64,000 bases of DNA from a virus. Made by a program: the position numbers and the translations under genes. The DNA is taken from IMG/VR virus record IMGVR_UViG_3300020048_000136. One strand, written 5' to 3'. Within the stretch, counting starts at the first letter, position 1; the number at the start of each line of letters is the position of its first letter. The notes beneath the pieces are model-generated. The model was not told the origin of the DNA, ran no database searches, and worked only from the letters and a program-made list of their open reading frames with translations. Below, one piece after another: positions 3,123-62,376 of the stretch.

Positions 3123-4577
3123 TTATAAATTTAAGGTTAGTAAATCTCTTTTAAAGTGTCTAAGCGTGTAGTCCTTCTTCTTGGTAACAGCCTTGTAAAT
3201 CATTGGCTCAATCCCTCCCTCAGAGAATACCCAATAAACATCATTCTTCAGCCTATCCTTTGTCGTCATCCTGTCCCGTGACTGCCAATAGCTTGTTGCG
3301 CTAAAGTCAATATTAAAATAAACAAGGCAGTCGGCTTGCTTCAGCGATATACCTTCCCTGCCCGAAACAATCTGAAGAGCAATTGATTTGTCCGTGTCTT
3401 CGAAGACATTAAGTTCAGTTGTTAGGTCATCACCGAATACCTTCTTCAGTACATTTAGCTCCTCAATGAACTTATAGAAGATTCCAATCTTCTTTCCGTT
3501 AAAGTAAGAGCGGATGAAGTCAGCCTTGGAGGTATCTATTATCATTGAATTCCCACTCTCAAACTTCACCGTGCCTGAGTACATTTGGTGTAGCTTCATC
3601 ATCAACTTCACAGGAGTATCTCCCAAGATAACCTCCTCCTTGCCTTCAATAACCAAGTCCTTGCGCAGGTTGGCAGTTAACTTATAAGTTAAGTCGCTCA
3701 TGCGAACCTTCAATACAGTCTCAATTGTTTGAACTACAAATCCCGCATCCTTTTGAGAGTACTGAATAGTGTATGGCTTCATCGCCTGTAGGATATCTTC
3801 GCTACCGTGAGAGTAATCCCTCATGAACAATCCATTTATCTTCTTCTCCTTCACATCCACATACCTGTCACAGAATCTGTAGAAATTAGAGAACTCATTG
3901 AATGGATTATTTGGGATGCCATAAACTTGATGATACATCTGAGAGTACGATTCGGGTGTTGGAGTGCCTGACATCAGTATAACCTTGGGTCTGAACCTCT
4001 TGACAATGTCATGGATGCTCTTCGCACGTATACTCGGCTTGGGGAATGCACCCATAGAGTGTGACTCATCGCAAATTACCACATCCCACTTAGTTTGTGG
4101 TATCTTGTGCAAACTTTCATAGTTTACTACGTGCAACTCAAAGGATGGATTTAAGAGGTTGTAATCACTTATGATGGACGACATAGCCTTCTTCTTCGTT
4201 ACGAAGAGAACGTGCGCCACATCCAAGGAATCGCATATCCCAAGACTTGTTAAGGTCTTTCCTGTTCTCACCTCCATGGCAAGGAGCAGAAATCCATGCT
4301 TTCGGATGACCTCTGCTCCACTTTTAATTATCTCCTTCTGATATTCTCGTAGTTCCACGTTGCTTATTTTAGGGTTGCTGCTGTAGTATTCGATGCTATT
4401 TAAAATCCTGTGTGTATACTTTGGCTCATCCACGTACTTCCTATTCTTGGTGATGGTCGTTCCCTTCTTTGTTGTCTTCACGATATCATACTCAGATAGC
4501 ATAACATCACGAAGCAGCTTGCAATACTGAACCATGTCCTCATTTGAGTACCCTATTGTTCTGTTTATTATATCCAT
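3123..4577 (-). CDS. SNF2/DEAD-like superfamily 2 helicase
   Basis: Walker A EVRTGKTLTS, DExH box VICDESH, motif III MSGTPTPES, and C-terminal helicase motifs SGREGISL and QSRDRMTT. Confidence 0.8.
   Translation of the reverse strand: MDIINRTIGYSNEDMVQYCKLLRDVMLSEYDIVKTTKKGTTITKNRKYVDEPKYTHRILNSIEYYSSNPKISNVELREYQKEIIKSGAEVIRKHGFLLLAMEVRTGKTLTSLGICDSLDVAHVLFVTKKKAMSSIISDYNLLNPSFELHVVNYESLHKIPQTKWDVVICDESHSMGAFPKPSIRAKSIHDIVKRFRPKVILMSGTPTPESYSQMYHQVYGIPNNPFNEFSNFYRFCDRYVDVKEKKINGLFMRDYSHGSEDILQAMKPYTIQYSQKDAGFVVQTIETVLKVRMSDLTYKLTANLRKDLVIEGKEEVILGDTPVKLMMKLHQMYSGTVKFESGNSMIIDTSKADFIRSYFNGKKIGIFYKFIEELNVLKKVFGDDLTTELNVFEDTDKSIALQIVSGREGISLKQADCLVYFNIDFSATSYWQSRDRMTTKDRLKNDVYWVFSEGGIEPMIYKAVTKKKDYTLRHFKRDLLTLNL
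3395..3408. repeat. palindrome TGTCTTCGAAGACA (inside the SNF2 helicase ORF; read as VFED)
   Basis: Exact match read from the sequence. Confidence 0.95.
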
Positions 4578-4578
4578 C

Positions 4579-7874: not shown

Positions 7875-7977
7875 AATTGAAAGTTGTTTTTGTTTTTGTG
7901 TCCCAAATATTTATAATATAGTGCCGAAGATTGGAACGTACTTCGTCATTATATGGAGTGTCGTCAAAGACAAATCG

Positions 7978-8067
7978 TGGTTGGAATGGGAATCGAACCC
8001 ATACTCCGCAGAAGATACCCCACTTTCGTGGCTCGACTACATAGTGCTGCCATTACACTATCCAACC
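7978..8067 (-). tRNA. tRNA-like gene with a non-canonical, expanded anticodon arm (no assignable anticodon)
   Basis: Minus-strand RNA has acceptor stem GGUUGGA/UCCAACC and a D-arm GUG(U)-AAUGGCA-(G)CAC. The T-arm is AUGGG-UUCGAUU-CCCAU, the discriminator is A, and no CCA is encoded. The anticodon position holds stem UGUAG/CUGCG enclosing 25 nt, which include a CCAC-GAAA-GUGG hairpin. Confidence 0.55.
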
Positions 8068-8086: not shown

Positions 8087-8827
8087 TTAATTATCAATTA
8101 TCTCGTCAATGTAATAGTTCTCAATGTCCTCAGGATGACCTTGGGCGAAGAACTTATTGAATACCTCAATTGCCCTTGCAACCTTGAACTCGCCATTCTT
8201 AACGAATGCTTCAGTAGGTCTGAAGATTCCAAGCTGTTGAGTCTCTTTATCGATGACAAAGAAGATGAGCGGTTTTCCGAAGAGTATTTGGTAGATGTAT
8301 GCTTGGCTGTCGTAGTTGTACATACGTGCCGACCATTTGAACTTATTGATGTCACTTGTGGTCTTCAAGTCGATTATGCAATTATCGGTTACGATATCCG
8401 CTTTCCCCTTCCACATCATTCCTTGAATCTGACCAACAGCAGGTTCTTCAAACTTGTTGCCAACCTTGTAAATCTCATCAAAGAAATATATGTTTGATTT
8501 CATTACGCTCGCAAGGCTGACAATATTGTCGTACTCCTTCTTCAGCATAACAAAGTCAAGGTTGTTAGTCTCAATGAACGCTTTGTACTCTTTTGTGGTA
8601 CGTGTTGTGACATCTACAAACTGAACCAATTTAGCTTTCTCCTGCTCTATCAGAAGTTGGTGGAAGAATCTCCCCTCGGCAAATGCCTTGGAGTCTTCAC
8701 GCTCAACCCCGAATAATTTAGGGTTTGAAAGTAATATTCCGATATCGGAATTTGATAAGTAATTCTTTCCTACACCCGTGTAGTACTCGGAATCAGTCTT
8801 CAGTAAATCAATTACGGCTTTATCCAT
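8087..8827 (-). CDS. PD-(D/E)XK (RecB/Cas4-like) exonuclease
   Basis: Motifs GKADIV...IIDLKT and QAYIYQ. Immediately adjacent to the annealing-protein gene, forming a recombination pair. Confidence 0.7.
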   Translation of the reverse strand: MDKAVIDLLKTDSEYYTGVGKNYLSNSDIGILLSNPKLFGVEREDSKAFAEGRFFHQLLIEQEKAKLVQFVDVTTRTTKEYKAFIETNNLDFVMLKKEYDNIVSLASVMKSNIYFFDEIYKVGNKFEEPAVGQIQGMMWKGKADIVTDNCIIDLKTTSDINKFKWSARMYNYDSQAYIYQILFGKPLIFFVIDKETQQLGIFRPTEAFVKNGEFKVARAIEVFNKFFAQGHPEDIENYYIDEIIDN

Positions 8828-9510: not shown

Positions 9511-9923
9511 TTGATTAGATTAGATTGTTTTTTGATAATTTGATTATACTTTAATTTAAGCGACTCCCTGTAGGATAATAGTTCATGTAGTAGTTTCTCG
9601 TTACAGCTTCCACTACAGGATTCGGCATCAATCCTCCGTTGATTTACTAAAAGTTTAGCGTTGCAGTTGTACAAAGCTATGTGTATTACTCCTAACTTCC
9701 ACCCATTTTCTAAAAAAAACAAGTAATCTTCTTTGCTTATTTCTCGGTAGTAATCACCGCCAAGATGCGTATTATAGATGTGGACTTCGTTAGTATTAAT
9801 ATCCTTGGTAATCTTGACCCCTGACCCGATATACCCAATATACTCAATTCCTGTTAGGGGAGCGCTATCGGCATCCTTACCTGCTTGGTTGAATGTGTCC
9901 ATCAACGAGTCTATAGCGTACAT
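9495..9923 (-). CDS. hypothetical protein (142 aa)
   Basis: Track ORF with short overlaps on both neighbours. Confidence 0.5.
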   Translation of the reverse strand: MYAIDSLMDTFNQAGKDADSAPLTGIEYIGYIGSGVKITKDINTNEVHIYNTHLGGDYYREISKEDYLFFLENGWKLGVIHIALYNCNAKLLVNQRRIDAESCSGSCNEKLLHELLSYRESLKLKYNQIIKKQSNLIKWTTT

Positions 9924-10210
9924 CTCTCAACCTCCCTCATTACGTGGATATAGTCATCATCCAACTTCATTCTATCGCTTGATGCCTTTATCCCATGGAT
10001 TATAGACGAGTGACCAATCTTGTAGCCCGATGCAGCCATATATTTTTGAATGTACATTACCTGCATTGGTCGGTGAAAGCATACGTAATATAGTATGTGA
10101 CGAGCATCAACCAATTCCCTACGTTTGCTCTTGCTGAATAATTCCTCCCGTGTTATGCCGAACTTAGATATTATCTTATCGACATAGCTGTTGAATACGT
10201 CCTGTTTCAT
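9911..10210 (-). CDS. DnaA domain IV-like HTH DNA-binding protein
   Basis: SKRRELVDARHILYYVC...IGHSSIIHGIK resembles the DnaA C-terminal pattern R..ARQIAMYL...RDHSTVIHA. The internal ATG at 10210 is preferred: it lies 19 nt after the upstream stop and is preceded by AAACCTTTAAAA. Confidence 0.5.
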   Translation of the reverse strand: MKQDVFNSYVDKIISKFGITREELFSKSKRRELVDARHILYYVCFHRPMQVMYIQKYMAASGYKIGHSSIIHGIKASSDRMKLDDDYIHVMREVERCTL

Positions 10211-10229
10211 GATTTTTAATTTTAAAGGT

Positions 10230-10529
10230 TTAGCCCTTGAGCCACTCAACAATGTAACCGCTCCCATCAAGTTCGTTAATAACCGATATTGGATAGAGCA
10301 ATTTGAATGCATTACGGATTTGATTCCATGTTTCCACATCCCTTATCCCCGTGTAAGCGGAGAGTTCATTTTTTACTTCTTGAAGTTTACTTTCCATTTG
10401 ATTAGATTTAGATTGTTTTAGATTAAATTCCATTTCCAAAGAACTATGGGAGATGACAATGTCTTCGAAGACAATATCATCACCCTCACGCTCTCGCACC
10501 TGCATAAACAGGTCTTTAGTCTTGCCCAT
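10230..10529 (-). CDS. hypothetical acidic protein (99 aa)
   Basis: Track ORF with a promoter box 20 nt upstream. It contains an internal AATCTAATCAAATG leader-like motif at about 10397, so it could be two genes in one frame. Confidence 0.5.
   Translation of the reverse strand: MGKTKDLFMQVREREGDDIVFEDIVISHSSLEMEFNLKQSKSNQMESKLQEVKNELSAYTGIRDVETWNQIRNAFKLLYPISVINELDGSGYIVEWLKG
10460..10473. repeat. palindrome TGTCTTCGAAGACA (inside ORF 10230..10529; read as VFED)
   Basis: Exact match. Confidence 0.95.
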
Positions 10530-12583: not shown

Positions 12584-12603
12584 AGGTTTATTTATTAAGG
12601 GTT

Positions 12604-12654
12604 TCCGTTTCATCGTTTACGAATCATCGGTCAGGATACACATCCCAAGACAGA
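12604..12654 (-). ncRNA. hammerhead ribozyme-like element HHR-3 (type III topology, U4C core variant)
   Basis: Minus RNA reads UCUGU-C | UUGGGAU-GUGU-AUCCUGA | CCGAUGA | UUCG-UAAA-CGAU | GAA-ACGGA. Same architecture as HHR-1 and HHR-2, with compensatory changes in stem I and a G.U pair in stem III. Confidence 0.5.
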
Positions 12655-12683
12655 AGGAGTGTCTTCGACGACACCCCAACCCT

Positions 12684-13844
12684 TTATTCTCTAAATTTAA
12701 CTACCTCCTCTTCTCTGAACCATATCCCGCAAGACTTGCAGTAATAGTTCGCAAACCCATCAAACTCCAAATCAGAATAGCAATCAACGCACATAGCGTT
12801 CTCCTCGGTGATATTGAAATCAGTAGGAGTAGTTCCCGTTATGAAATCCTGCTCGGATAATCCCGACATAAAATCAAGTTCGTACCTTACATCAGCATCT
12901 TGGAATCGGGATGGCTTATAAGTAATTTCGGGACGAGTCTGAGGTGTAGGAGTATATTTCGGAGCATAACCCATAATCCTTTCAGTATATGTGCGAAAAT
13001 CCTGCTTGTATGCTTTGTGGAATGTAGCATTGGCGCTTATCATCTTCGGATTGAAGTATAACCAACATACAAGGACATTCCCGTTAGCCATCTTGATAGG
13101 AATCTGCTGCCTCTGATACCAATTGGGATGACCTTCCAACCTATCCAAATCAGTTAGCTTATCATCGCTGACCTTGAAAACATCAACAGCAACATTATGC
13201 CCGATACCTTTGCGATTCACTACATAAGGTAGCCCCTCTATTATTAACGGATACTTATCCTTGGTGACTCCATTGCCGACATAAGTACTCTTGGTAAGAT
13301 ACGACTGATAGTTATTGTATCCCTTCTTCAGAGTCCCGTATACGGCAACCAAATGCTCTTGGAGGACATTGCCCTTTGAGTACCAAATATCGCCTCTCAT
13401 TGACCATAGCTGTTGATTGTAAATCTCGTATGTTTTAGTCTTTACGTTGACCGTGACAAACCTGCATGGGTATTTTGCAAGTTCTTCTTCCCAACCGCTC
13501 CTCGGAATCAATCCTAACTTTTCAGCCAACACTTTGCTGTCAGTCTTTTTGTGAGTCCCGATACCCTGTATTGTACCGTTCATCATGAGCCATTCATCCG
13601 AATTTGCACCGCATTGGAATGGATGAGTATTGTCTTTCCCAATCTTGCCAACCGTAGCATAGCGGAAGTGCGCTATAAATGGTCGGGCTGTATCAAGAAC
13701 CTTAAATTCTGATGACTTGTGATAACTGATACTGTAGTCATCAAGCCATACAACACCCAACCCGTCAGGATTGATTAAGGATGATGTCTTGGCTATCTCT
13801 GTGGACAGCCTCTCATTCGACTTCTTAATGATTATTACACACAT
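12684..13844 (-). CDS. fusion protein: class II (Ntn) glutamine amidotransferase, gamma-glutamylcyclotransferase (AIG2/GGACT-like) domain, and C-terminal zinc ribbon
   Basis: N-terminus MC(2)VIII with HFRYATVG...NTHPF...MMNGTI (GATase-II pattern). Central AVYGTLKKGYNNY...LDRLEGHPNWYQR (GGCT/AIG2 pattern). C-terminus CVDC...CKSC. Confidence 0.7.
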   Translation of the reverse strand: MCVIIIKKSNERLSTEIAKTSSLINPDGLGVVWLDDYSISYHKSSEFKVLDTARPFIAHFRYATVGKIGKDNTHPFQCGANSDEWLMMNGTIQGIGTHKKTDSKVLAEKLGLIPRSGWEEELAKYPCRFVTVNVKTKTYEIYNQQLWSMRGDIWYSKGNVLQEHLVAVYGTLKKGYNNYQSYLTKSTYVGNGVTKDKYPLIIEGLPYVVNRKGIGHNVAVDVFKVSDDKLTDLDRLEGHPNWYQRQQIPIKMANGNVLVCWLYFNPKMISANATFHKAYKQDFRTYTERIMGYAPKYTPTPQTRPEITYKPSRFQDADVRYELDFMSGLSEQDFITGTTPTDFNITEENAMCVDCYSDLEFDGFANYYCKSCGIWFREEEVVKFRE

Positions 13845-14424: not shown

Positions 14425-14673
14425 TTAAGTTAAAATGATTACTATTCTTATGTCATTGTAGATTGTGGATGCAGTTACATATCCGCAAGAATCTACGGTC
14501 ATCTTGGCAACCTCGGCATTTATAACATTTGCTATCTCTGCCTTGTAATGCCCTTGCAGGGTGATTTCTGATTTGCTTACGCTTATTGAGTAGAAATACT
14601 CAAGCGGTAAATCCTTGGGAGACAATAAAGCCTCAACCATTTCTAAGTTCTTTATGATAAGATGGTCTTCCAT
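14425..14673 (-). CDS. hypothetical protein (82 aa)
   Basis: Track ORF. Confidence 0.5.
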   Translation of the reverse strand: MEDHLIIKNLEMVEALLSPKDLPLEYFYSISVSKSEITLQGHYKAEIANVINAEVAKMTVDSCGYVTASTIYNDIRIVIILT

Positions 14674-14697
14674 AATATTTGTCTTTAAAGATATTAT

Positions 14698-14943
14698 TTA
14701 TTTATTTGTGATTTCTTCGGCATCAGTCCATGCTGCCAACAGGCTTGGATATTCGTATCCATCGACTAAATCCAATGCGTTAAACGCATCTTCATCCCAC
14801 TTGGTGATATCTTTGTCCATCTGATACTGACAGAATACCGTGGTATCCTTTGTTGCGCTGACTCCCACAACACTTACGACTGAGGTATCATAGTTGGTTA
14901 CAACCATCCACTTCATCGCCATTAAGAGCAAGAATGTTTTCAT
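14698..14943 (-). CDS. hypothetical protein (81 aa)
   Basis: Track ORF. A one-mismatch copy of the palindrome (TGTCTTTAAAGATA) overlaps its stop at 14689-14702. Confidence 0.5.
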   Translation of the reverse strand: MKTFLLLMAMKWMVVTNYDTSVVSVVGVSATKDTTVFCQYQMDKDITKWDEDAFNALDLVDGYEYPSLLAAWTDAEEITNK

Positions 14944-15994: not shown

Positions 15995-16048
15995 TCCGTT
16001 TCGACTGTTTTCAGTCTTCATCAGCGAAGATACACATCTTCGGACGGA
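15995..16048 (-). ncRNA. hammerhead ribozyme HHR-1 (type III topology)
   Basis: Minus RNA reads UCCGU-C | CGAAGAU-GUGU-AUCUUCG | CUGAUGA | A | GACUG-AAAA-CAGUC | GAA-ACGGA. All core residues are present: C3-A9, G12A13A14, A15.1-U16.1 and the GUC cleavage triplet. One extra nt lies between A9 and G10.1. Confidence 0.75.
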
Positions 16049-16072
16049 GGGAATGTCTTTAAAGACAATCCC
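16049..16072 (-). terminator. 12-bp hairpin abutting the HHR-1 5' end (contains the TGTCTTTAAAGACA palindrome)
   Basis: GGGAATGTCTTT/AAAGACAATCCC with one mismatch. Lies 10 nt after the stop of 16083..16379. The T-run is on the plus strand only. Confidence 0.45.
16054..16067. repeat. palindrome TGTCTTTAAAGACA (hairpin upstream of HHR-1)
   Basis: Exact match. Confidence 0.95.
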
Positions 16073-17523: not shown

Positions 17524-17566
17524 TGGGAGTGAGATGAATCGAACATCTCACTTGCACCTTGCTCCC
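17524..17566 (-). ncRNA. tRNA acceptor/T-arm-like minihelix
   Basis: Minus RNA reads GGGAG-CAAGGUGCAA-GUGAGAUG-UUCGAUU-CAUCUCAC-UCCCA. It has a T-loop sequence, a 3' part resembling an acceptor strand plus discriminator A, and GGGA/UCCC closure. It has no D or anticodon arms. Confidence 0.4.
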
Positions 17567-17572: not shown

Positions 17573-17586
17573 TGTCTTCAAAGACA
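17573..17586. repeat. palindrome TGTCTTCAAAGACA (3 nt after the stop of 17589..18224)
   Basis: Exact match. Confidence 0.95.
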
Positions 17587-18534: not shown

Positions 18535-18777
18535 TGCTATTGTTTTAAAGGTTAATGTTAGCGAGACAGAGGAAGAAACGAATTCCTTATACATCTGCTG
18601 TTCTGTCTCAGCACTACTTCCAAATGCTGTTTCCCCTCGCAGCATTCCATTCAATCTGTCAATGTACTTGTGTTCCCCTCCTCCGCATTTCTTCACCTCT
18701 GACTCTTCAGAAATGTCATCTAACTGATAATCAAGGAGTTAGTGTCCTGTAGGCTGATTCACTGTCGAATCATGGAG

Positions 18778-48720: not shown

Positions 48721-49515
48721 ATGGAATATACACTAACATTTAGCGAGGGAGCGCAAGGATGGGCTTCATTTTATTCTTACATCCCCGATTGGATGATTGG
48801 GATGAATAATAATTTCTACTCATTTAATAATGGCAACCTGTACAAGCATAACTCACATCCAATCCGTAATAACTTTTATGGACAGCAATACACATCAAAG
48901 ATTCGTAGCGTGTTTAATGATGAGCCTCTTGTAAACAAACTCTTTAAGGCATTAAACTTAGAGGGAGATGCTGCATGGGGAGCATCATTGACTACTGACA
49001 TACAGAACACGGGGTACATTGATGAGGCATGGTTTGAGAAGAAGGAGCAGTCGTTCTTTGCATTTGTAAGAAACTCAGGTTCAATCCCTGCATCATCAGA
49101 TGAGTATGTGTTAAGGTCGATAAATGGTATCGGAAGGGGAGAGTCATTAGTTACGTTACTTCCTTCGTTGGTAGAGGTAAACTTCTCCATATCACCACTT
49201 GTATCAATAGGAAACATCATAAGCTGTGGGGATACTCTTTATTACGCTATTCCCCCATATACTACTCCTATCTATGCAGGGGAGGTTTATCTCGTTACAG
49301 TAGATATTCCTAATGGCATAAATAAGATTACCGTTCAGAACCTACCACTTGTAACTATACCAATTGGAGATGCCTACTTTATGTTCGTAAAGAACTCGGT
49401 TGCTGAATCGCATGGGGTATTAGGACACTACTGTGTATTTGAATTGGAGAATGACTCAACATCACATATAGAGCTGTTTGCAGTAGAATCATCCGTTATG
49501 AAAAGTTATCCGTAA
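48721..49515 (+). CDS. hypothetical virion protein (264 aa)
   Basis: Track ORF. Confidence 0.55.
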   Translation: MEYTLTFSEGAQGWASFYSYIPDWMIGMNNNFYSFNNGNLYKHNSHPIRNNFYGQQYTSKIRSVFNDEPLVNKLFKALNLEGDAAWGASLTTDIQNTGYIDEAWFEKKEQSFFAFVRNSGSIPASSDEYVLRSINGIGRGESLVTLLPSLVEVNFSISPLVSIGNIISCGDTLYYAIPPYTTPIYAGEVYLVTVDIPNGINKITVQNLPLVTIPIGDAYFMFVKNSVAESHGVLGHYCVFELENDSTSHIELFAVESSVMKSYP

Positions 49516-52705: not shown

Positions 52706-55700
52706 ATGAACGAGCAAGCAATCAAGGATTCCTACGAATTATTTGTTGCAAATGGGTATGGAAAATCTATTGATGACTACAAGACCCTCATTGCATCAAA
52801 TCCAAATGCTCTTAAGGATTCATACGACCTATTTGTTGAGAATGGGTACGGAAGAACTATTGATGATTACAAGACACTCATGGGGGTTGGTATTTCTGCT
52901 GAGCCTACTGTAAAAAAAAAAGAAGTTTCCTCTCAGCCTGTTACTACCGATTTGCGAATTTCTTCAAATCCTCAGGCAATGGAGGCTATCGGGAACAGGA
53001 TAGAGCAGATAGACCCACTATCTCAGCATAATCTAAATAAAGAACAGTCGATATCTAACGCATATAAGGCAGCTGAAAATCCTCCAAACGAGGAGAAGAA
53101 GGAAGGGAACTTCCTTACCAAGGCAGCCTCATTAATCTTCAAAGGTCTTCTGTTCCAAAAGGAAATTGAGAGCCAAGTTGAGTCGGGGACAACTAAGCTT
53201 GTCTCGGGCGCATTAGGTGTACCCGAGATTGCTTGGGATGTTGCAAGTTCAGCGCCAAGGGCATTAGGCATTCCCGTTCAACATTGGAGAGATACTCCTT
53301 GGGTACAATCTGCCGATGTTGCGGGTGTTGAGTTGAACCCTATTGCTCATATGGAGAACACCAAGAACTATTTGTTTGAGCGTGGTAAGGAGATAGACAA
53401 GTATGTCAGAACCATAAATCCCGAATTGGACAAGGGCGCTTTAACTGCATTTTCAGAAGGTGATGTTGGATTAGGTTTCAGAAATCTTATTAGCGGTACG
53501 GCTCAGTCTCTGCCAACTACCGTGGCTATTGCTGCCTCGGGAGGTACTGCTGCGCCTGCTATGGTAGGGTTTCAAGTAGGTACATTTGCCGAGCAGTCAT
53601 ATCAGCAGTCATTGGATGATAATGACTATGAGAAGATAGGTCAAGACAGACTTGCTCTTGTGAGCCTTTTGTCGGGGTCTATGGAGTACACATTTGAAAG
53701 CGTATTGGGAGCAGGAGCAACGGCAGCAGCAATAAGGAAACTAATTGAGCGGGAAGGTAAGGATGTTGCAGAGGGTGTTGTACGCAAAGGAATCAAGAAC
53801 GGGTTCGTTGATATGCTTATCACTAACCCTTGGCTTGCGCCTTTAGGTGATTCTTTCGAGGAGGGAGCGACTCAGCTTTCTCAGAACGTCATCAATAAAT
53901 ATTCGGGATACAAACCCGACATTAAGATAATGGATGGTGTCGGAGAGAGTATGCTCCAAGGCTCATTCATGGGTATCGCAATGGGAGGCACATTGAAGGC
54001 TGTAGCTATGTCTCAGAAAGAAAAGCTTCCATCGCAGAAAGAGGCTGATGAGAAGATAAGAGGTATCGCTGATAGGCTTATGAACCCCGAGAATCTCCCG
54101 CTTGTCAGCACATCTATGGAGCGGGTAGTTAAGTGGAGTGAGATGATGAATAGCTTGGGCAGGATTGATGAGCAGACTTACAATCGAATCCAAGAGAACG
54201 TATCGAACTATCGTGCTGCCACAGACCTATTAAGTGTCGGTAAAGGGGAAAAGACTACCCCGAAACCCGAGACTGTAACCCGTCTGATGGATTTATTGGC
54301 AGCAAAGAAAGACTTGACATCCACCAAGGATAGGGCAGAGTACTACTCTGATGAGATTAGGCGCATCAATGATGAGATTCTGAACGTAACTCAGAACAAA
54401 GAAGTTCCCGAGGGAAACAATCGTGAGTACATCAATCAGTTAGTCAACGATATCGTGGCTCATACCCGTGTTGGTGTTCCCTCATATACCATTGATGGTG
54501 TTGAGTATGCCAAGGATAAGTTCACCGAGATTATAAGTGGCATGACTGCCAATGATTTCAAGGCGCACAAGATTGGTGTGTCGAATGATAAAGAAACATC
54601 TAACCTTTTAATCGAAAGAAGCAATGCCATTCAAGAGCCAAGCACAGAGGAGAGCCTGCCACGCAGCGAACAACCCGAAGTGGGACTGCCAAAAGTGGGA
54701 GAAGGAGACACCCAAGAACAAACCGCTCCCGAAGTACTTCAAGCCAAACAAGAAGAAGTAACCGCTGAGGTAGCAACGGAGGCTTCTCCTGCTGCCGAAA
54801 CAGTTACCGCTGCCGAGACTGCCACCGAGCAAGAGCCTGCCGTAGAGGTCACCGCAGAGCCTGCTGTAACAGAAACTACTGAGGTGGTATCTGAGGCGGG
54901 TGAGACTGCCGTGAGGGAAGTGTCTTCAAAGACACTTGAAGGAACTAAGTATGACTTGTCGGATGTGGATAAGTCCACAAGCACAATCGCTACCTTGGCA
55001 AGCACAGCAAGGGAGGAGAAGAGAGCATTCTTGACTGAAAGGAAAGCTGAACTGTTAAATACAGTAGAGACAGCGCCTTCCGAGAACCCGTCAACCGCTC
55101 GGGCATTAGAAGAACTTCAGTCTGTAGAGAAGAGGATAGAGTCATTGGCTATAGCTGACAAGATTGACGAGGTGAAAGCTAAGCTTGCCGCTGCAACAAA
55201 CGCAAAGGACAAGGCTAAGTGGGACAAGGAGAATACTAACCTTCAGAACAGATTCCGTGAGTTGAATGGTAACTTCTCATACAGTGGATACGAACTGATA
55301 TCGCATACAAACCGTGATATTGTTAAGGCTAAGTCGTATAAAGACCTTGCTGAGAAGTACCATGCTGCCAAGCAGGACGGCACAAATCCTGCATTGGTGA
55401 AAGCTGTTGAGGAGTTGGCTTATAAAGGGGCGGGTATCCCTGCTCCCGAGGCTGTTGTTCAGACCGAAGCGCCTGCACAAGAGACAGCGCCCGTTCAAGC
55501 TGAGACCACACAAGTAGCGCCTGCACAAGAGACAGTCGTAGAGGCTGCTCCTGCCAAGCCTGCTAAAGCTGCCAAGCCTGCTGTTAAAAGCGAGGTAGAG
55601 GCTATTGAGGAGGATATACAGTTCTACGAGATGAAGGTAGAGGATTTCATTGAAGACAATAAGTCATCTCTCTCTGAGTTAAAGGAGGACATCGCCAATC

Positions 55701-58700
55701 TGAAGAAGAAGAAGGATGGAGTTCGCTCATCAAATATGACTCGGGCAGAAAAGGCTGAGGCGATAGAGGAGATTGACTCCGACATAGAAGAACTTAAGGA
55801 CAACTACGATGCTGTTGTTGAGTCTAATAACAATGACATCAGAGAGCATAAATCAGAATTAAATAAACTAAAAAAGAAATTAGCAAAGGCTCAGCTTAAA
55901 GCAAAAGCCTCCACCACATCACAAACAACCAAGGCAAATGGACAAGAAAACACAGAATCAGCAAGTGGCACTAACCAAGGAGCAGGAGAAGGAACTTCTA
56001 AGTTATCCCGACTATTGGAGACCATCACTCAGAGAAGCAGCGTTAAGAGGGGAATCAATAAAAAAGACGTACGAAGAGAACAAACAGTTAGAGGCTTTCA
56101 TGTAAACATCATAAGTGAGATAACCTTTGACAAATCACTATCGTCTAAACTCAAAAAAGCATTCTCGGGGTTCAAGGGAACTCAGAAGGTTTACGAGATA
56201 ACGAATGGTGATTCGTTCTTGGCATTGCAGAAGAAAGCTTTAGAGAACAACAAGTTCGGCACATCGGTCACATACAAATCCGCAGAGGATTACAATAGTA
56301 CACGAATGTTTATTACTGAGGACGGGTCAACGGGATTAGTCCTAACTAAGGACGGTGAACTCTCGGCAGGATTCTCAGATGGGACACGACCAAACAATAT
56401 CTCTCAGCTTCTTATCCTTGGTATCAAAGAAGGCGCTCAGCATATAGAGTGCTTCGATACCGTGCTTCCTCACTACTATTCTAAGTTCGGGTTCAAAATC
56501 AAATCAAGACTTGAGTTCAACGATGAGATGAAACCCGAGGGGTGGGACTATGAGACGTACAAGAACTTCAACAATGGCAAACCCGATGTCCTTTTTGGCA
56601 TATATGAGGGTGGTGATAGGAACACCATTGAGGATAGGATAGGCACATTAGGTGACTACAATAAGGACGAGGCAAAGAAATTTGATAAGGATAGTTATCA
56701 GCAGGCACACGATTTCAACCTTAACGAAGACGTAAAGGTTCGTAAGGCAGAGGGTGTATATGAAGAAACAGTTGCTGATGAGGCTTCTCGGTTAGAGTCA
56801 TTGCTTGACGATGGCGCTCAGTTCCAACTTGAGACCGAGCCGTCAGATGTGCAGGAGAGCATGATTGCTGAGGCTGAGAAGATGATGGCTGAAGCTGAGG
56901 CGCAAGGATTCTCTGAGAATGCTTTTGATGCCACTAATCCCGAGCCTGCCGTGGTTCAGATTCCTATAGTGATAAGGGAGAACTCAAAGCTTGCCGATAA
57001 GGTAAAGCGCATGGGGTTATCTGAACTTATAGGGAAGAAGGTAAACCTTGTCATGGCTGACCAACTAAAGGTTGGTAGTGTGATGGTTGGTAAGAAGAGG
57101 CTCAATAGAATGGGAGGTCACCTATTCCCTCTCATCGACAAGCTGTTCGGGAAGGTTGCTTGGGCATCAATAGATAGAGCTGCTGCTAAGAAAATTGTTA
57201 TCGGTGCTATAAAATCAGACTATACTGTGGTTTACAACATGGATACCAAAGCTATAGATTCTAATAAAGCAATGAGAGAGACGTTCTTGGGGATGATAGA
57301 GGCGCTTCCAAAGGAGCAGAGCGATGTTATTCTCAAGCAAATACTATCACACCTTGACGGGAAGAAGTTCGCAAAGGCAACTGCTGCTGTGCATAAGGCA
57401 CTTGATAATGTTAAAACATTCAAGGAGTTTGAAGATGCCCTCTCTACTTTAAATGTTGATGCTAAAGCAAAAATAGTAAACTTACTAATACCTTCTGATA
57501 AAGTAAAGGCTGCTTCTGATTTAGGGAAGACCTTACAGAGTTTAGACATCTCTGTTGAATCAATTCGCAGGCAGAACATAGAGCAGTTCGTATCTGAGCT
57601 GCCAATGGGTGCTATGACGATGGTTCTTGAAGTTCACGATAAGAATGGAAATCGTGTGACCGCAGAAACATTGGATGAGGCTATTATGACAAGGGAGCAG
57701 CAAGAAGCTGAGGGTCTGCCTACGCATGATAACTATCCGTTCTATGTTAGAGGTAAAGCAGTAGCTATCTTAAAAGAGACTGTCCCCTTTTGGCATATGC
57801 TAAAGCAAAGCTTGGATAAAATAAATAAAAAAACTGCCAAGATATTAAGGGATAAAAACGATAATATAATAACAGCTAATACTGCGTTACTGAATGAGAT
57901 GTATATGGCTCAAAGGTCTGCAACAAATGCAAAAGAACTTACAGACCCAAATACCACACACTATCAGAAGTTTGTTGCGTTATTGTCAAGGTCATTCCCT
58001 ACAGTAAAGGTTGCAACAGAAGCTGAGTTCAATAACTTGATAGATAACCTTGGCGCTCAGACTCTTTTAGTTAAGAAACAAAAGGTATATGGCGCAGTAT
58101 ACGGAGGTAAGGTCTATCTTAACCCTACTCTTGAGAACTACAACACACCTATCCATGAGTTTGGGCACATATGGACTAACGTTACAAAGGCATCCAATCC
58201 AAAGCTATACGAGAAGGGAATCTCTCTTGTAAAAGGCTCATCTTATGAGAGCAGAGTCCTTAACAGTCCCGACTACAAGAGGATTGTAAGGAAGATGCGT
58301 GAGAGTGGCTCTACTGTTCAGCAGATAAACGAGTATGTGGCTGAGGAGGCTCTCGCTATGGCTATCGGTGACAAGGGTGAGTCATTCATAATAGCCTCAC
58401 AGAGGGCATCGTTTAATGATTGGCTGAACAAGATGTACTCGGCATTCAAGAACATGATGGGTATCTCAAAGTATACCACCGAGCAGCTTGAGAATATAAC
58501 CCTTGATGAGTTCACTAAGGCTATCGCTGTTGACCTTCTGTCGGGAGGTCAGCTATTCTCCAATGAGGAGGTTGACAATGCTGCCAAGAAGCTACAGTTG
58601 GATACAGCAGGACGTAGTGCCGAGGCAATAGTTAAGAAGGCTCGGGAGAATGGATTCTCTGAGGAGTCAATCAGAGTGGTTCTCAACAAGAGAGGCTACT

Positions 58701-61700
58701 CTCCTGCCGAGATTACCGAGGCAATGTCCAATATTGCTCCAACCGCTACGCTGTCAGAAGATATTCTTGAGGGATACGATGCCCTTATGAAGAAGGTTGA
58801 TGACAAGATTCGCACACAAATCGCCAACAAGGTTGATGTGAAAGCCATCGCCAAGTACTTGGATAAGATGCTTGCCAAGAGTGAGGTGTACAATAATGCC
58901 ACCGATGCTCAGAAGAAACGGTTGGAACTTGAGGTTAAGAACAAGCTGAATGTAAGGGAGAATCGGACGGCTACCTTGGGTCGCTTCTTTGGTGCTATCA
59001 AGGATGTGACGGGAATGTCTAACTCCGACAAGAAGAAGATTGTTCGCAGTATCAGAGACTTGTCACAAGACTCGGCAAAGCACATCACTCAAGAACTGAG
59101 GATGTTGGCAGAGACGGGGAAGGTTACCTTAAACCAAGTAAATAATATCATATCGAAGTTCGGCAAGACGAATCTGAATAGCGAGACATCCGTGTCTCAC
59201 TTTGTTGACTACATGTCCAAGGTATTTAAGGATGCTGAGTACTCAGCTAAGCTTAGTGATGCCAACAAGATGATGAAGTCAATCAAGAAGCTGTCCAAGA
59301 ACAAGGACAAGGATGCCAATTTAAGGGCATTAGCGAGCGCCTTTATAAAAATCAACCCTGCTACCGTTGATGACATAGATATGTACAACAGCGTGGCTGC
59401 AAAGATAAACGAGGCTATAAAAGGGTCAACCATGCGTGGGCAGAATGTTACGTTTGCCGAGTCGGTAAACATAGCTGAGGCATCCGAGTACATACGGGAG
59501 ACCATTGATGCGCAGAACGATAAGATTCGCAAGGATAGGATAGCTGAGATTCAGCAGCTTATGGGTGTTGATGTCTCTGACTTGAGTGCTGAGGATATGT
59601 TGGAGTTCTTATCCAACGATGAGCCTATCACCAAGTACAACGAGGGGATAGTGAGAAGCACAATCAACAAGATGTTCAATATCTACTCTACGCTTATAAG
59701 CGAATCATTCTCTACGGGCAAGGATGTCTTTACTGATGAGGATGTCAGCTTTACGCAGGAGCAGATGGAACTTGTCAATAAGTTCATGTCTATGGACTTG
59801 AAGTTGCTCAGTCCCAAGAATGCTCTCAAGGCGGTGGATGCTCTATCAAACTTCCTACAGAACAAATCGACTGCCAAGATGCAGGCGGTGGTATCTGAGT
59901 ATGCAGGAGAGTATAACGCACAAGCATTGGTTCGCAAGGGTGTTAAGTCAAGGGTTCTTCGTAAGTATTACTTTAAGAACATTGGTCGATTCTTGACAGA
60001 GCAAACATATAATCTGAACATGGTATTTGAGCGCATGTTCGGTGGTGTAAACAGCGGAGCGTTGGTCAAAAGACTTTCGGGAATGGCTGATGTCATTAAC
60101 AATAAGGCTCTTGCTCAGAGGATGTCATCAGATATTACTAAGCGATATGTAGATAGGTTCTATCATAGGACTACAAATGGTCAACCTTTCAACTCAGAGT
60201 ACAATGAGGTTGAGCGTGGTGTGTATGCCTTTATGACGAGGAATGTCATAGGAACTGAGGCTGAGATGAAAGCTGAGTTCGGGCGCAGGAAGACGTTACT
60301 TGAGGAGACAATTGATGCATTATCCAAAGGAGACTCAAAGGAGCAGGCTATAGCTGCTCTATACCAAAGCGCATACATAGGCATAGTAGCTGAAGCTAAG
60401 ACCATAAAAGACATATATGACAATACGAGTTCAACAAATGTTGATGCTGTTGAGTTTTGGGTGTCGGAGTGGGCAGATAACTTTGAGCAGATGTCAGATG
60501 TTGCGTTAAATGTATACAACAAGGTGTTGGATAGAGACTTAAACTACACTCCCGATAGGTACTCAAGGCTTAGTGCTGACTCGGGAACGGTAGAACTTAG
60601 CAACGATGAGTCTGCATTCTTAAACAATACTGATGGTGTTATCTACAAGAAAGAAACGGGTGTGTTGATGACTGCAATAAAGCCTAAGACACTCCCAAAG
60701 AATCGGTATATCAATCTGTCATTCGATACCAACAACTCTAACTCAATGTACGATGCGCTTGTGGATATCAATACCGCATCAGCTATACGTCAAGTGGAGT
60801 CGTTCTTCAATTCAGATAGCTACAGTAAGATTGTCCAAAGCGGTGATGATGCTAAGCTTCTGAAGAATCGTGTAGCCTTATATGTTCAGAACATAAGGAG
60901 GAAGTCACCGTTCTCAAATGACGAGATGTCGGCAATGGTGCGAAACTTAAACAAGCTTGCCACAATCGGTGTCGGTCAAGCATTAGGTGGCGTAACTCAG
61001 CCACTAAAGCAGGTCATCTCCGTGGGAACAAATACCCTTGTAAATGCAGGGGGATTAGATGTATTATCTACATTTAATGCGGCTAAGAAATCATTTATTG
61101 ATAGATGCGGGTACGCTATTGCAAACCGTGGGATTGAGTCTCAGGCTCACGTTGAGTCTATAAATAAGTTGATTGAAGAAGCTTCAAAATCAACAGGAGA
61201 GAAAGCCCTGAAACTCATTGAGAAGGCTAACAAGAAATGGTTGGAAGTCTTCTTGGTAAATCCCGATGTATACATAGCAAGAATGTCTTGGATGACATAC
61301 TACGAGAAGGCATTGCGGGCAGACGGAATAGACCCAAGCAGGATAGACTACAACACGGCTGAGGTTAATACCAAGGCAGCTGACTACGCACAAGAGATGG
61401 TGGATAGGCAGCAGAACGTGTCAGATACTGACATGGCAGGCAAGGTATTCAGCAATAAAGAGCCGTCCAATCAGATTCTTGTTAAGACTTTGCTCCCGTT
61501 TGCAAGCTTTAGGATGAACCAATCCGCTCGTTTAGGTACGGACATATCTGTTCTGACATCTAAGACATCTACTGTTGAGGATAAGATAATAGCGGGTAGG
61601 TCTGTAGCAGGGTTCGGGGTCGAGATGGTTGTGTTCCATGCTTTAGGTGTGGGTATTGCACTCACGTTGGGAAGTATAGCTAAGGCGCTGTTGGGCAAAG

Positions 61701-62362
61701 ATGAGGATGACGAAGAATATGCAAAGAGGAAGAAGAATATTATGAAGGGTAGAGGCTCTTCTGTGGTAGCCGACATGTTCTCACCAATACCCATTGCTGA
61801 TAAGTTGGTTCAGATGGCAGCAAGCTATGCGTTGAATGAGGCTCAAGATATGATGGATGTAAGTGAGGAGGATAAGTTAGCTATCTATAGCAGCAACAAG
61901 CAGGACTTTGTTCAAGCCATGGGGACTTTTGGAATAGCATATGATAGGGCAAAGCAGCTGTATGACCTTGTATCTCTTTCGGCTACGGGTGAATACAAAG
62001 ATGACTTTGGTGTTGAGAAGAAGATAACTGAAGCCAACCAAGATAAGCTTAAGTACTTTATCCCTGCTGCCGTCATGGTAAACATGGGGTTAGCGCCATC
62101 GGAGACGAGTTCAGTTATACGCTACTCAATAAAGTATGCCAAGGAGAAGAGCAAGAAGGTTGGAGGTGAGTCATCAGAGGGAGGCATGACCAAGGAGGAC
62201 ATGAAGACCTACATGCCCAAGACATATGAGAGGATGTACGGGAAGAACTCTGCTGATGCAAAGATGAAGGAGAAGATTAAGGCGCATACAAAGCCTTATG
62301 ATGACAAGATGAAGGCTTATAAAGCTAAGATGAAGTTGATGGGAAAGAGAAGTGGATTATAG
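52706..62362 (+). CDS. giant multidomain (polyvalent-type) virion protein, 3218 aa, with a GNAT-like domain, a zincin HExxH motif and a C-terminal TM region
   Basis: N-terminal tandem repeat DSYELFVANGYGKSIDDYKTL / DSYDLFVENGYGRTIDDYKTL. Acidic Thr/Glu/Ala/Pro linker around 54600-55600. GNAT-like segment around 56085-56530 (...ECFDTVLPHYYSKFGFK). HEFGH at 58154-58168. TM helices near 61600-61700. Confidence 0.7.
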   Translation: MNEQAIKDSYELFVANGYGKSIDDYKTLIASNPNALKDSYDLFVENGYGRTIDDYKTLMGVGISAEPTVKKKEVSSQPVTTDLRISSNPQAMEAIGNRIEQIDPLSQHNLNKEQSISNAYKAAENPPNEEKKEGNFLTKAASLIFKGLLFQKEIESQVESGTTKLVSGALGVPEIAWDVASSAPRALGIPVQHWRDTPWVQSADVAGVELNPIAHMENTKNYLFERGKEIDKYVRTINPELDKGALTAFSEGDVGLGFRNLISGTAQSLPTTVAIAASGGTAAPAMVGFQVGTFAEQSYQQSLDDNDYEKIGQDRLALVSLLSGSMEYTFESVLGAGATAAAIRKLIEREGKDVAEGVVRKGIKNGFVDMLITNPWLAPLGDSFEEGATQLSQNVINKYSGYKPDIKIMDGVGESMLQGSFMGIAMGGTLKAVAMSQKEKLPSQKEADEKIRGIADRLMNPENLPLVSTSMERVVKWSEMMNSLGRIDEQTYNRIQENVSNYRAATDLLSVGKGEKTTPKPETVTRLMDLLAAKKDLTSTKDRAEYYSDEIRRINDEILNVTQNKEVPEGNNREYINQLVNDIVAHTRVGVPSYTIDGVEYAKDKFTEIISGMTANDFKAHKIGVSNDKETSNLLIERSNAIQEPSTEESLPRSEQPEVGLPKVGEGDTQEQTAPEVLQAKQEEVTAEVATEASPAAETVTAAETATEQEPAVEVTAEPAVTETTEVVSEAGETAVREVSSKTLEGTKYDLSDVDKSTSTIATLASTAREEKRAFLTERKAELLNTVETAPSENPSTARALEELQSVEKRIESLAIADKIDEVKAKLAAATNAKDKAKWDKENTNLQNRFRELNGNFSYSGYELISHTNRDIVKAKSYKDLAEKYHAAKQDGTNPALVKAVEELAYKGAGIPAPEAVVQTEAPAQETAPVQAETTQVAPAQETVVEAAPAKPAKAAKPAVKSEVEAIEEDIQFYEMKVEDFIEDNKSSLSELKEDIANLKKKKDGVRSSNMTRAEKAEAIEEIDSDIEELKDNYDAVVESNNNDIREHKSELNKLKKKLAKAQLKAKASTTSQTTKANGQENTESASGTNQGAGEGTSKLSRLLETITQRSSVKRGINKKDVRREQTVRGFHVNIISEITFDKSLSSKLKKAFSGFKGTQKVYEITNGDSFLALQKKALENNKFGTSVTYKSAEDYNSTRMFITEDGSTGLVLTKDGELSAGFSDGTRPNNISQLLILGIKEGAQHIECFDTVLPHYYSKFGFKIKSRLEFNDEMKPEGWDYETYKNFNNGKPDVLFGIYEGGDRNTIEDRIGTLGDYNKDEAKKFDKDSYQQAHDFNLNEDVKVRKAEGVYEETVADEASRLESLLDDGAQFQLETEPSDVQESMIAEAEKMMAEAEAQGFSENAFDATNPEPAVVQIPIVIRENSKLADKVKRMGLSELIGKKVNLVMADQLKVGSVMVGKKRLNRMGGHLFPLIDKLFGKVAWASIDRAAAKKIVIGAIKSDYTVVYNMDTKAIDSNKAMRETFLGMIEALPKEQSDVILKQILSHLDGKKFAKATAAVHKALDNVKTFKEFEDALSTLNVDAKAKIVNLLIPSDKVKAASDLGKTLQSLDISVESIRRQNIEQFVSELPMGAMTMVLEVHDKNGNRVTAETLDEAIMTREQQEAEGLPTHDNYPFYVRGKAVAILKETVPFWHMLKQSLDKINKKTAKILRDKNDNIITANTALLNEMYMAQRSATNAKELTDPNTTHYQKFVALLSRSFPTVKVATEAEFNNLIDNLGAQTLLVKKQKVYGAVYGGKVYLNPTLENYNTPIHEFGHIWTNVTKASNPKLYEKGISLVKGSSYESRVLNSPDYKRIVRKMRESGSTVQQINEYVAEEALAMAIGDKGESFIIASQRASFNDWLNKMYSAFKNMMGISKYTTEQLENITLDEFTKAIAVDLLSGGQLFSNEEVDNAAKKLQLDTAGRSAEAIVKKARENGFSEESIRVVLNKRGYSPAEITEAMSNIAPTATLSEDILEGYDALMKKVDDKIRTQIANKVDVKAIAKYLDKMLAKSEVYNNATDAQKKRLELEVKNKLNVRENRTATLGRFFGAIKDVTGMSNSDKKKIVRSIRDLSQDSAKHITQELRMLAETGKVTLNQVNNIISKFGKTNLNSETSVSHFVDYMSKVFKDAEYSAKLSDANKMMKSIKKLSKNKDKDANLRALASAFIKINPATVDDIDMYNSVAAKINEAIKGSTMRGQNVTFAESVNIAEASEYIRETIDAQNDKIRKDRIAEIQQLMGVDVSDLSAEDMLEFLSNDEPITKYNEGIVRSTINKMFNIYSTLISESFSTGKDVFTDEDVSFTQEQMELVNKFMSMDLKLLSPKNALKAVDALSNFLQNKSTAKMQAVVSEYAGEYNAQALVRKGVKSRVLRKYYFKNIGRFLTEQTYNLNMVFERMFGGVNSGALVKRLSGMADVINNKALAQRMSSDITKRYVDRFYHRTTNGQPFNSEYNEVERGVYAFMTRNVIGTEAEMKAEFGRRKTLLEETIDALSKGDSKEQAIAALYQSAYIGIVAEAKTIKDIYDNTSSTNVDAVEFWVSEWADNFEQMSDVALNVYNKVLDRDLNYTPDRYSRLSADSGTVELSNDESAFLNNTDGVIYKKETGVLMTAIKPKTLPKNRYINLSFDTNNSNSMYDALVDINTASAIRQVESFFNSDSYSKIVQSGDDAKLLKNRVALYVQNIRRKSPFSNDEMSAMVRNLNKLATIGVGQALGGVTQPLKQVISVGTNTLVNAGGLDVLSTFNAAKKSFIDRCGYAIANRGIESQAHVESINKLIEEASKSTGEKALKLIEKANKKWLEVFLVNPDVYIARMSWMTYYEKALRADGIDPSRIDYNTAEVNTKAADYAQEMVDRQQNVSDTDMAGKVFSNKEPSNQILVKTLLPFASFRMNQSARLGTDISVLTSKTSTVEDKIIAGRSVAGFGVEMVVFHALGVGIALTLGSIAKALLGKDEDDEEYAKRKKNIMKGRGSSVVADMFSPIPIADKLVQMAASYALNEAQDMMDVSEEDKLAIYSSNKQDFVQAMGTFGIAYDRAKQLYDLVSLSATGEYKDDFGVEKKITEANQDKLKYFIPAAVMVNMGLAPSETSSVIRYSIKYAKEKSKKVGGESSEGGMTKEDMKTYMPKTYERMYGKNSADAKMKEKIKAHTKPYDDKMKAYKAKMKLMGKRSGL
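54921..54934. repeat. palindrome TGTCTTCAAAGACA (inside the giant ORF; read as VSSKT)
   Basis: Exact match. Confidence 0.95.
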
Positions 62363-62376
62363 TGTCTTCAAAGACA
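62363..62376. repeat. palindrome TGTCTTCAAAGACA (begins 1 nt after the giant ORF stop)
   Basis: Exact match. Confidence 0.95.

Follow-up and report, generated by a model that had tools for sequence, protein, structure and literature searches.

A lineage-switching palindrome and its candidate partner protein p211 in an uncultured podophage family

The 64,000-nucleotide (nt) viral sequence IMGVR_UViG_3300020048_000136 from IMG/VR, referred to below as the window, carries ten exact copies of the 14-bp palindrome TGTCTTNNAAGACA, an over-representation far beyond chance. The window is a podophage of about 64 kb that looks lytic and belongs to a large uncultured family; a contig of 64,556 bp encodes an identical protein. 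In about 100 related phages, the motif appears, disappears and changes together with one early protein of 211 amino acids (aa), p211, encoded at 17589-18224 on the minus strand; hence, the palindrome is most likely a p211 recognition site. In the reading we favour, to which we assign a probability of roughly 0.55, the copies would be the recognition sites of a dimeric p211 that controls early expression, where binding, dimerisation, the DNA ligand and regulation are what we infer from sequence comparisons. The parts of this reading differ in strength: p211 very probably recognises the palindrome, DNA is its probable ligand, and a role of the pair in early-gene control is proposed tentatively.

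The palindrome in the window and across the phage family

The original prediction reported ten exact copies against a chance expectation of about 0.01, and both figures hold. The exact copies start at 3395, 10460, 16054, 17573, 18902, 20636, 33475, 40570, 54921 and 62363, while Markov models of orders 0-5 trained on the window give 0.007-0.013 expected copies, and none of 100 dinucleotide-preserving shuffles of the window contains one. Matches with one mismatch start at 7959, 12660, 14680 and 61284. The first three are the degenerate copies that had been placed at about 7958, 12662 and 14689, which exist at these corrected positions; the fourth, with centre GG, is an addition and is probably a chance match. 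The central dinucleotide is pyrimidine-purine in all exact copies (CG in three, CA in four, TG in two and TA in one). The TA-centred copy at 16054 contains neither GTCTTC nor GAAGAC, so the earlier statement that this hexamer occurs in every copy is incorrect; the other nine exact copies contain one of the two.

The nearest GenBank phage, MW202828.1, was found via GroEL, which is 58% identical; it is 60.8 kb long and syntenic with the window. A near-identity search of 24 kb of the window against GenBank phages returned no match. Several hundred relatives are present in IMG/VR. Freshwater samples are the source of a large part of the family, and its hosts may be Bacteroidota, which is a guess.

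In the relatives, the commonest form of the motif is the 16-bp GTGTCTTYRAAGACAC. G at position -1 and C at position +14 are present in 99% of 143 distinct contexts, and positions further out are unconserved. The full unit is 16 bp long and consists of two inverted 8-nt half-sites, GTGTCTTY, which as a duplex is GTGTCTTCAAAGACAC. Relatives carry 3-14 copies each, at densities of up to 9-11 copies per 20 kb. The palindrome apex is constant inside one genome and different between lineages, with whole genomes changing variant together. MW202828 has 14 copies of GTGTCGTTAACGACAC, all within its early block, and further lineages have other palindromes of the same design (GTCTCTTYRAAGAGAC, GTGTCCTCGAGGACAC, GTGTGTTCGAACACAC, GTGTACAYRTGTACAC, TGTMTCTTTAAAGAGACA, AGTGCACTYGAGTGCACT, GTCCGAC..GTCGGAC and CGTATT..AATACG). 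Variant lineages, including those with GTGTCGTTAACGACAC and AGTGCACTCGAGTGCACT, are entirely free of the GAAGAC/GTCTTC hexamer. In some relatives, no signature palindrome was found.

Copies inside genes are also maintained, and orthologous copies are retained across lineages with about 77% protein identity. The copy in the helicase gene has an ortholog in most relatives, where synonymous sites are more conserved than in the flanks. The position of the terminase copy bears the motif in 6 of 39 relatives, and the peptide there changes from P-K-D-C-Y-S-R-S to P-(K/E)-(K/E)-C-L-Q-R-H, i.e., the amino acids are altered to fit the motif. The original proposal of a constraint on the nucleic acid, and of a sequence-specific partner, is thus supported by a motif that is family-wide, switches between lineages and is kept in open reading frames (ORFs) at an amino-acid cost.

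A host origin, as a repetitive extragenic palindrome (REP) or an uptake sequence, was considered and rejected: a scan of 185,579 genomes, one per bacterial species, gave single matches in unrelated bacteria among the matches listed. Among the 120 bacterial stretches listed, the sole multi-copy contig is the 56-kb WTJX01000555.1 (56,458 bp; loci L110 and L157), which is probably a phage of the window's family. Its binning in a Cytophagales metagenome-assembled genome is a weak hint of the host. Searching the literature for the motif string returned only unrelated primer matches.

Association of the palindrome with p211

An apex that stays invariant amid diverging flanks, concerted switches of variant and the retention of intragenic copies are not explained by structure alone; hence, a gene tracking the motif was sought. 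When loci were anchored on the primase, the top motif-associated gene was that of the GATase/GGACT enzyme, and when they were anchored on GroEL, it was the 211-aa ORF at 17589-18224. In the GroEL-anchored set, where homologues were called with a hidden Markov model and motifs de novo, p211 is found in 21 of the 21 loci with a signature palindrome and in none of the 15 without. Three of these 21 loci encode a very divergent p211 (16-21% identity), and each of the three has a different palindrome. As a partner, the GATase/GGACT protein was set aside, being an enzyme and associating less cleanly than p211. In four p211-negative loci, no recurrent palindrome was found among the five longest inverted-repeat pairs listed per locus, and a single-protein search with the p211 homologue of locus L298 returned two loci.

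The palindrome and the protein also change in step. Among 80 p211-anchored loci, more than 70 proteins have the segment G[WFY]QKS[FY]x[YH]K, all with GTGTC-type sites. About eight half-site changes are observed, each coinciding with a change in this one conserved segment of p211. The segment GWNKSYLFK occurs with the half-site GTCTCTTY, GLSKAQGHK with GTGTCGTT, GFKKSYFMR with GTGTACAY, GW[KR]RA[FY]GYK with TGTMTCTTTAAAGAGACA, GFGKEWCYR with AGTGCACTYGAGTGCACT, QMSKSYMYL with GTCCGAC.. and GIAERMIQR with CGTATT..AATACG. Moreover, the p211 gene is bracketed by copies, one lying 0-60 nt past the stop codon in 48 of 69 loci and one at most 1 kb upstream of the start in 60 of 69. In the window, the bracketing copies are 17573-17586 on the minus strand, 2 nt past the p211 stop codon, and 18902-18915, in the divergent, non-coding control region, 678 nt before the p211 start.

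The p211 family comprises about 200 homologues, all of them unnamed and none with a Pfam domain. The AlphaFold model of p211 (pLDDT 88.7) has a helical domain at residues 1-148, a disordered acidic linker and a small beta-beta-alpha domain, and a fold search in BFVD returned only unnamed homologues. PF18090 (SoPB_HTH) gives sub-threshold matches in 5 of 40 members, at residues 35-64, with a best E of 0.0012 and, among the scores listed, values of 12-15 bits against a cut-off of 27 bits, which is a hint only.

This motif-tracking protein is not among the helix-turn-helix (HTH) candidates of the original prediction. The DnaA-domain-IV HTH protein at 9911-10339 is disfavoured, as its recognition helix does not differ between lineages that have the motif and those that lack it, and so is ORF 22733-23188, which both groups of lineages encode. 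The remaining candidate, 62624-63169, is another DnaA_C protein.

Context of the copies and other features of the genome

In a first set of relatives, 94 of 156 copies are intergenic and on the sense strand, mostly 0-30 nt past a stop codon; a larger set (n = 299) has 157 intergenic-like copies versus 142 in ORFs. The intergenic copies form the apex of longer sense-strand RNA hairpins. In 33 non-identical modules, this hairpin abuts a type III hammerhead: 96.4% of the alignment cells pair and 17 of 26 pairs change on both sides, values reached by none of 500 shuffles, and the signal collapses in slid controls. Covariation extends to the lower stem of the hairpin, where G.U pairs abound (pair 12-29 is GU in 21 modules and AU in 8; pair 11-30 is GC in 11 and UG in 9), while the five apical pairs are almost never changed. 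Given G.U pairs correspond to C.A mismatches on the opposite strand, the hairpin is selected as sense-strand RNA. In the same modules, hammerhead stems I-III are 91-99% paired, with 13 of 15 pairs changing on both sides, and fit the type III pattern of CUGAUGA and GAAA cores with an open stem III. It is this covariation in the dozens of copies from relatives that establishes the hammerheads, not Rfam, which reported none at 12603-12655 or 15995-16048, either with its gathering threshold or with E values of up to 1 allowed.

These are the two hammerheads of the window, both on the minus strand. The first has a core CCGAUGA...GAAAC with three stems and a predicted cleavage after GUC at about 12649; it abuts a hairpin at 12656-12677 (minus) with the one-mismatch copy 12660-12673 at its apex, 6 nt past the stop codon of the GATase/GGACT gene 12684-13844. 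At the orthologous position, MW202828 has its own variant palindrome. The second abuts the hairpin GGGAU-UGUCUUUAAAGACA-UUCCC at 16049-16072 (minus), whose apex is the exact copy 16054-16067, and the whole module has a z of -4.5. Type III hammerheads between prophage genes have been proposed to cut long polycistronic transcripts into single-gene mRNAs (Perreault et al. 2011, PMC3088659). If the hammerheads do cut polycistronic RNA in this way, the hairpin would lie at the 3' end of the upstream product.

In about 20 further contexts, a tRNA-like minihelix or a tRNA follows 1-5 nt after the hairpin. In the minihelix, a T arm of the canonical GGTTCGANTCC type is combined with an acceptor-like stem, the T-loop motif having a background of 0.085 per kb. 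Altogether, copies lie 0-8 nt upstream of predicted cleavage sites of hammerheads in 61 cases and of T-loop elements in 21 or more. The minihelix of the window, at 17525-17566 (minus), begins 6 nt after the palindrome that follows p211 and has the loop GUUCGAUUC. Minihelices of this kind, with a connector of about 10 nt between acceptor-like stem and T arm, lie between early genes and are also present in relatives at L004:5400-5445, L005:3117-3165 and L007:2943-2990; ARAGORN did not call any of these four. By analogy with mitochondrial t-elements, they may direct processing by RNase P or RNase Z. At L309:7850-7900 and L328:4340-4400 (minus), the signature hairpin lies within the tRNA-like element itself, between acceptor-like stem and T arm, in the place of the anticodon arm. 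In the AGTGCAC lineage, at L298:3300-6800 (minus; the same as L363), a second conserved element, ...CGCTATCAC(G/A)G(A/G)ATAGC...AATGAAC..., comes before several of the signature hairpins and is perhaps a further small ribozyme.

Relatives whose sequence continues beyond the capsid gene show a terminator behind it, with the motif at the tip in about 25 of 80 loci. The apices of the remaining ones are unrelated or degenerate, which indicates that the hairpin can work without the motif. In the window, the intrinsic terminator pattern, i.e., a G+C-rich hairpin with an immediate U-tract, is found at copy 40570 only, and it recurs in the capsid terminators of relatives. This terminator, at 40559-40601 (plus), follows the capsid-like gene 39051-40541 and consists of a 15-bp hairpin with apex 40570-40583 and then UCUUUUUU (-21.2 kcal/mol, z -5.7). 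Hairpin and terminator contexts, as originally described, are real. Since most other copies are followed by A-rich or ribozyme sequence, the terminator class does not describe the whole motif. An ungapped stem-extension test over all copies gave a weak signal, with extension confined to the ribozyme-linked and terminator subsets.

In the window, the copies at 7959, 12660, 14680, 16054, 17573, 40570 and 62363 follow a stop codon or tRNA-Ser(CGA) at a distance of 0-30 nt, for the most part in line with the placement first described. The one-mismatch copy 7959-7972 (minus) is 4 nt 3' of this tRNA gene (7977-8067, minus), and the one at 14680-14693 (minus) lies between ORFs 14698-14943 and 14425-14673, with the next ATG 6 nt further on. 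The exact copy 62363-62376 (plus) starts at the first base past the stop codon of the 3218-aa giant gene (52706-62362, plus), the last late gene. On its 3' side, the giant gene and ORF 62624-63169 converge on a strong 11-bp hairpin at 62391-62425, which probably terminates transcription in both directions.

Five copies had been assigned to ORFs, and this is correct for four of them. Copy 3395-3408, with centre CG, lies in the SNF2-type helicase gene (3123-4577, minus) and reads N-V-F-E-D-T; copy 20636-20649, with an 8-bp stem, lies in the GroEL gene (19980-21578, plus) and reads C-V-F-E-D-T; copy 33475-33488 lies in the large-terminase gene (33235-35514, plus) and reads C-L-R-R-H; and copy 54921-54934 lies in the giant gene. 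The fifth, 10460-10473, is the apex of a 15-bp RNA hairpin at 10448-10485 (minus; -19.3 kcal/mol, z -5.4); it sits in the doubtful 5' part of ORF 10230-10529 and is probably non-coding, between genes. The neighbouring protein at 9911-10339 probably starts at MKQDVF, which makes the overlap with ORF 10230-10529 part of an annotated 5' extension.

The minus strand from 1 to about 19,900 carries the early and replication genes, which encode the SNF2 helicase, a primase-helicase, a Sak annealing protein, a PD-(D/E)xK nuclease, two DnaA-domain-IV HTH proteins and the GATase/GGACT enzyme. The plus strand encodes GroEL/GroES, lysis proteins, the large terminase, the portal, the capsid-like protein, a crAss-muzzle-domain protein and the 3218-aa protein. 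The crAss-phage muzzle C-terminal domain (PF25729, E 7e-19), at 48721-49515 (plus), ties this family of phages of about 60 kb to the crAss-like tail architecture. The MW202828 counterpart of the giant protein has 3859 aa and is mis-annotated as a 'reticulocyte binding/rhoptry protein'. The two small proteins at 9911-10339 and 62624-63169 (both minus) mimic DnaA domain IV, with a signature like ...GHSSIIHGI....

Other repeats are present in the window. The 12-mer CAACACCATTGG occurs 27 times at 25323-27314 (plus), inside ORF 24328-27483, at spacings that are multiples of 27 nt; the array is a 9-residue tandem repeat in a protein of about 1050 aa without a family match. Five of the window's eight ATCGACAT copies, in both orientations, cluster at 19579-19838, in the divergent control region that separates the early operon from GroEL, and related TCGACA(C/T) repeats are present in the relative locus L442 at 8445-8522 and 18541-18618. 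This cluster resembles iterons or operators, perhaps for the DnaA-domain-IV proteins. At 19170-19290, a CTG/CTC triplet run in the non-coding control region gave a spurious weak Rfam match to isrG.

Candidate explanations and known systems

In the favoured reading, a p211 dimer would bind the two inverted half-sites GTGTCTTY on double-stranded DNA. The sites are concentrated in the early operon, and many of them occupy the 16 nt at the tip of inverted repeats that already act as RNA 3'-end hairpins. Such a hairpin begins 0-30 nt past a stop codon and has behind it a self-cleaving hammerhead, a tRNA or a tRNA-like element that is presumably an RNase P substrate, or, after the capsid gene, a U-tract. 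With its gene bracketed by its own sites, p211 could exert an autoregulated control of early genes, e.g., by blocking or attenuating transcription at cistron ends. The DNA site of a dimer would then be housed where inverted repeats are already tolerated, an arrangement that would fit both the DNA and the RNA pointers. DNA uptake sequences housed in terminators are a precedent for a DNA-read motif in terminator stems.

Several observations speak for DNA as the ligand. The dyad symmetry spans the positions of the would-be RNA loop, and both half-sites end in Y in most lineages and in R in L328. With 142 of 299 copies in ORFs, the intragenic copies read in detail, those of the helicase and the terminase, are kept at the nucleotide level and lack an extended stem. 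At pair 6, G.U variants are not clearly favoured over C.A ones (14 versus 8). The modelled domain layout of p211 and the weak SoPB_HTH matches are further pointers to DNA.

Other points weigh against the favoured reading. The co-occurrence of p211 and the motif is confounded by phylogeny, and the GATase/GGACT protein and a 333-aa ORF also associate with the motif, if less cleanly. The p211-negative loci were searched with fixed geometries, which missed imperfect motifs elsewhere (L309 and L441); hence, some of these loci could hide a motif. Searches of p211 against Pfam, PHROG, PDB sequences and PDB folds gave no significant match, and the SoPB_HTH matches do not fall on the covarying segment at residues 85-93, so the DNA-binding fold of p211 is putative. 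The window's own copies are atypical, with the flanking G and C in only 4 of 10. Sites at cistron ends and not at promoters are unusual for a repressor. Finally, both the sense-strand bias of the centre in intergenic copies (CA 56 versus TG 17) and the tight coupling to RNA-cleaving elements would fit the recognition of an RNA stem-loop.

Such recognition is the basis of an alternative that we consider unlikely, in which the conserved 6-bp stem with its UYRA tetraloop, at the 3' ends of processed early mRNAs, is the target of p211 or another factor, which would stabilise these ends or control cleavage by the hammerhead or RNase P. This would agree with the sense orientation of the intergenic copies at the apex of covarying, G.U-rich hairpins, their position just upstream of predicted cleavage sites, the CA bias, and the hairpins inside the tRNA-like element in some lineages; the rare non-palindromic loops are also GNRA in sense (GUAA twice, GUGA twice, their complements never). 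Yet about half of the copies lie in ORFs, those examined there being without the lower stem, the strict two-fold symmetry covers the loop positions, and the G.U and C.A variants of pair 6 show no clear bias. An invariant stem sequence would also be an unusual target for an RNA-binding protein, and in MW202828 the examined flanks of the 14 copies have no hammerhead core or T-loop, save one T-loop-like stretch. Were RNA the ligand, p211 and its lineage-specific 16-nt stem-loop could form a phage mRNA 3'-end system ahead of interchangeable cleavage modules, setting early-cistron stability or cleavage timing, a proposal we hold to be speculative. With as little confidence, it could be viewed by analogy as the bacterial-virus counterpart of the histone stem-loop and SLBP, with a specificity re-coded at least seven times in one phage family. 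A DNA-level version, in which a sequence-specific roadblock would end early transcripts exactly at cistron boundaries, stands on an equal footing with the RNA 3'-end system.

The remaining explanations are less probable still. That the system is selfish and REP/RAYT-like, with p211 as an enzyme that spreads its flanking palindrome to new intergenic and genic sites and the copies as tolerated hairpins of little function of their own, is improbable: the bracketed p211 gene, the lineage-specific palindromes after genes that follow the protein, and the gain of new terminase copies in a subclade by about 6-7 substitutions are compatible with it, but p211 matches no Pfam family, HUH-type transposases included, and no nuclease-like fold, orthologous copies are stable across lineages of about 77% protein identity, and 16 bp is far below REP size, with no conserved flanking tetranucleotide. 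Ordinary terminator or 3'-stabiliser hairpins that need no partner, their identical apex resulting from module duplication and shared descent, are more improbable again. That hairpins act in this general way is plausible, and terminators with unrelated apices occupy the equivalent place in relatives, but flanks, lower stems and ribozymes have diverged freely around 16 invariant nt, whole genomes switch variant in concert, intragenic copies are kept, and the presence of the motif follows p211. We find it hardly credible that the copies are N4-type hairpin promoters for a virion-packaged RNA polymerase, which would be the 3218-aa giant protein. Its gene ends the structural module, the phage has a crAss-type muzzle domain, and the short hairpins are concentrated in the early region, but the protein has no DxDxD motif, Pfam match or PDB match, the copies lie at 3' ends, including after the last late-operon gene and in a canonical terminator, and relatives show no asymmetric flanking signal. 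A study of the crAss-like phage phi14:2 reported no early-promoter motif. A target of restriction, modification or other host defence, such as the BbsI-like GAAGAC suggested originally, has an equally slight chance of being correct, since the hexamer, present in one or other orientation in 9 of 10 exact copies, is missing from copy 16054 and from every variant lineage, the conserved unit is 16 bp, and the bacterial stretches listed have single matches except for the one phage-like contig.

If p211 does bind the sites, a family of about 200 unannotated homologues would gain a function, and the roughly eight matched protein-site specificities would be a natural set for studying the evolution of a recognition code or for deriving orthogonal parts. 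It would also reveal how early expression is organised in an abundant uncultured podophage family. The intercistronic modules of hairpin and hammerhead or tRNA-like element offer a testable role for phage hammerheads, whose purpose has been open since 2011.

Among known systems, the closest kind is a ParB/SopB/KorB-type protein with dispersed palindromes of 13-16 bp. The phage-plasmid N15 has dispersed SopB sites, and KorB with its OB sites in IncP plasmids illustrates that ParB-type centromere-binding proteins can also be global regulators. In layout, p211 resembles KorB and SopB, its helical domain being joined to a small C-terminal domain by a flexible acidic linker. In the F plasmid, each sopC repeat contains a 16-bp inverted repeat bound by SopB (PMC3177203). 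The palindromes described here are like those of SopB/sopC, N15 and KorB/OB in being perfect inverted repeats of 13-16 bp, which in those systems a dimeric protein recognises, in about 10-14 near-identical copies per replicon, within and between genes, and in covarying with a protein. By contrast, Pfam scans covering about 60 ORFs of the window returned neither a ParB/Srx CTPase domain nor a ParA partner; sequence links p211 to this class only through the sub-threshold SoPB_HTH match in 5 of 40 members, with no fold match. The sites also lie at cistron ends in RNA hairpins and not at promoters or one centromere, and the genome is lytic-podophage-like.

Three other systems are regarded as functional analogies only. 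Phage T7 has about ten conserved hairpins between its early genes, where RNase III cleavage leaves a protective 3' hairpin on the upstream mRNA; in contrast, cleavage here would be carried out by cis-acting hammerheads or tRNA-like elements, stems are 6-15 bp long, and a 16-nt apex tracks a phage protein. REP/RAYT elements and the uptake sequences of Neisseria and Haemophilus are short genome-specific palindromes that lie after genes and double as hairpins or terminators. As with REP/RAYT, the p211 gene is flanked by its own repeats (48 of 69 and 60 of 69 loci), yet there is no HUH/Y1 match, the motif is far shorter, and the carrier is a phage and not a chromosome. The histone stem-loop bound by SLBP has a 6-bp stem and a 4-nt loop shortly past the stop codon, with cleavage a few nt downstream, and RNase P generates 3' ends beside tRNA-like elements in MALAT1/mascRNA and at plant mitochondrial t-elements. 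There is no homology to the histone system; RNA binding by p211 is putative, and many copies lie in ORFs.

As in the prophage hammerhead work (PMC3088659), type III hammerheads lie between phage genes; that work described no conserved upstream hairpin and no associated protein, whereas here three kinds of cleavage module, of which the ribozyme is one, can replace each other behind the same hairpin. What would be new, judging from the sequences compared, is an uncharacterised protein family with co-evolving sites that are unusually placed in RNA-processing hairpins, the kind of system itself being already known.

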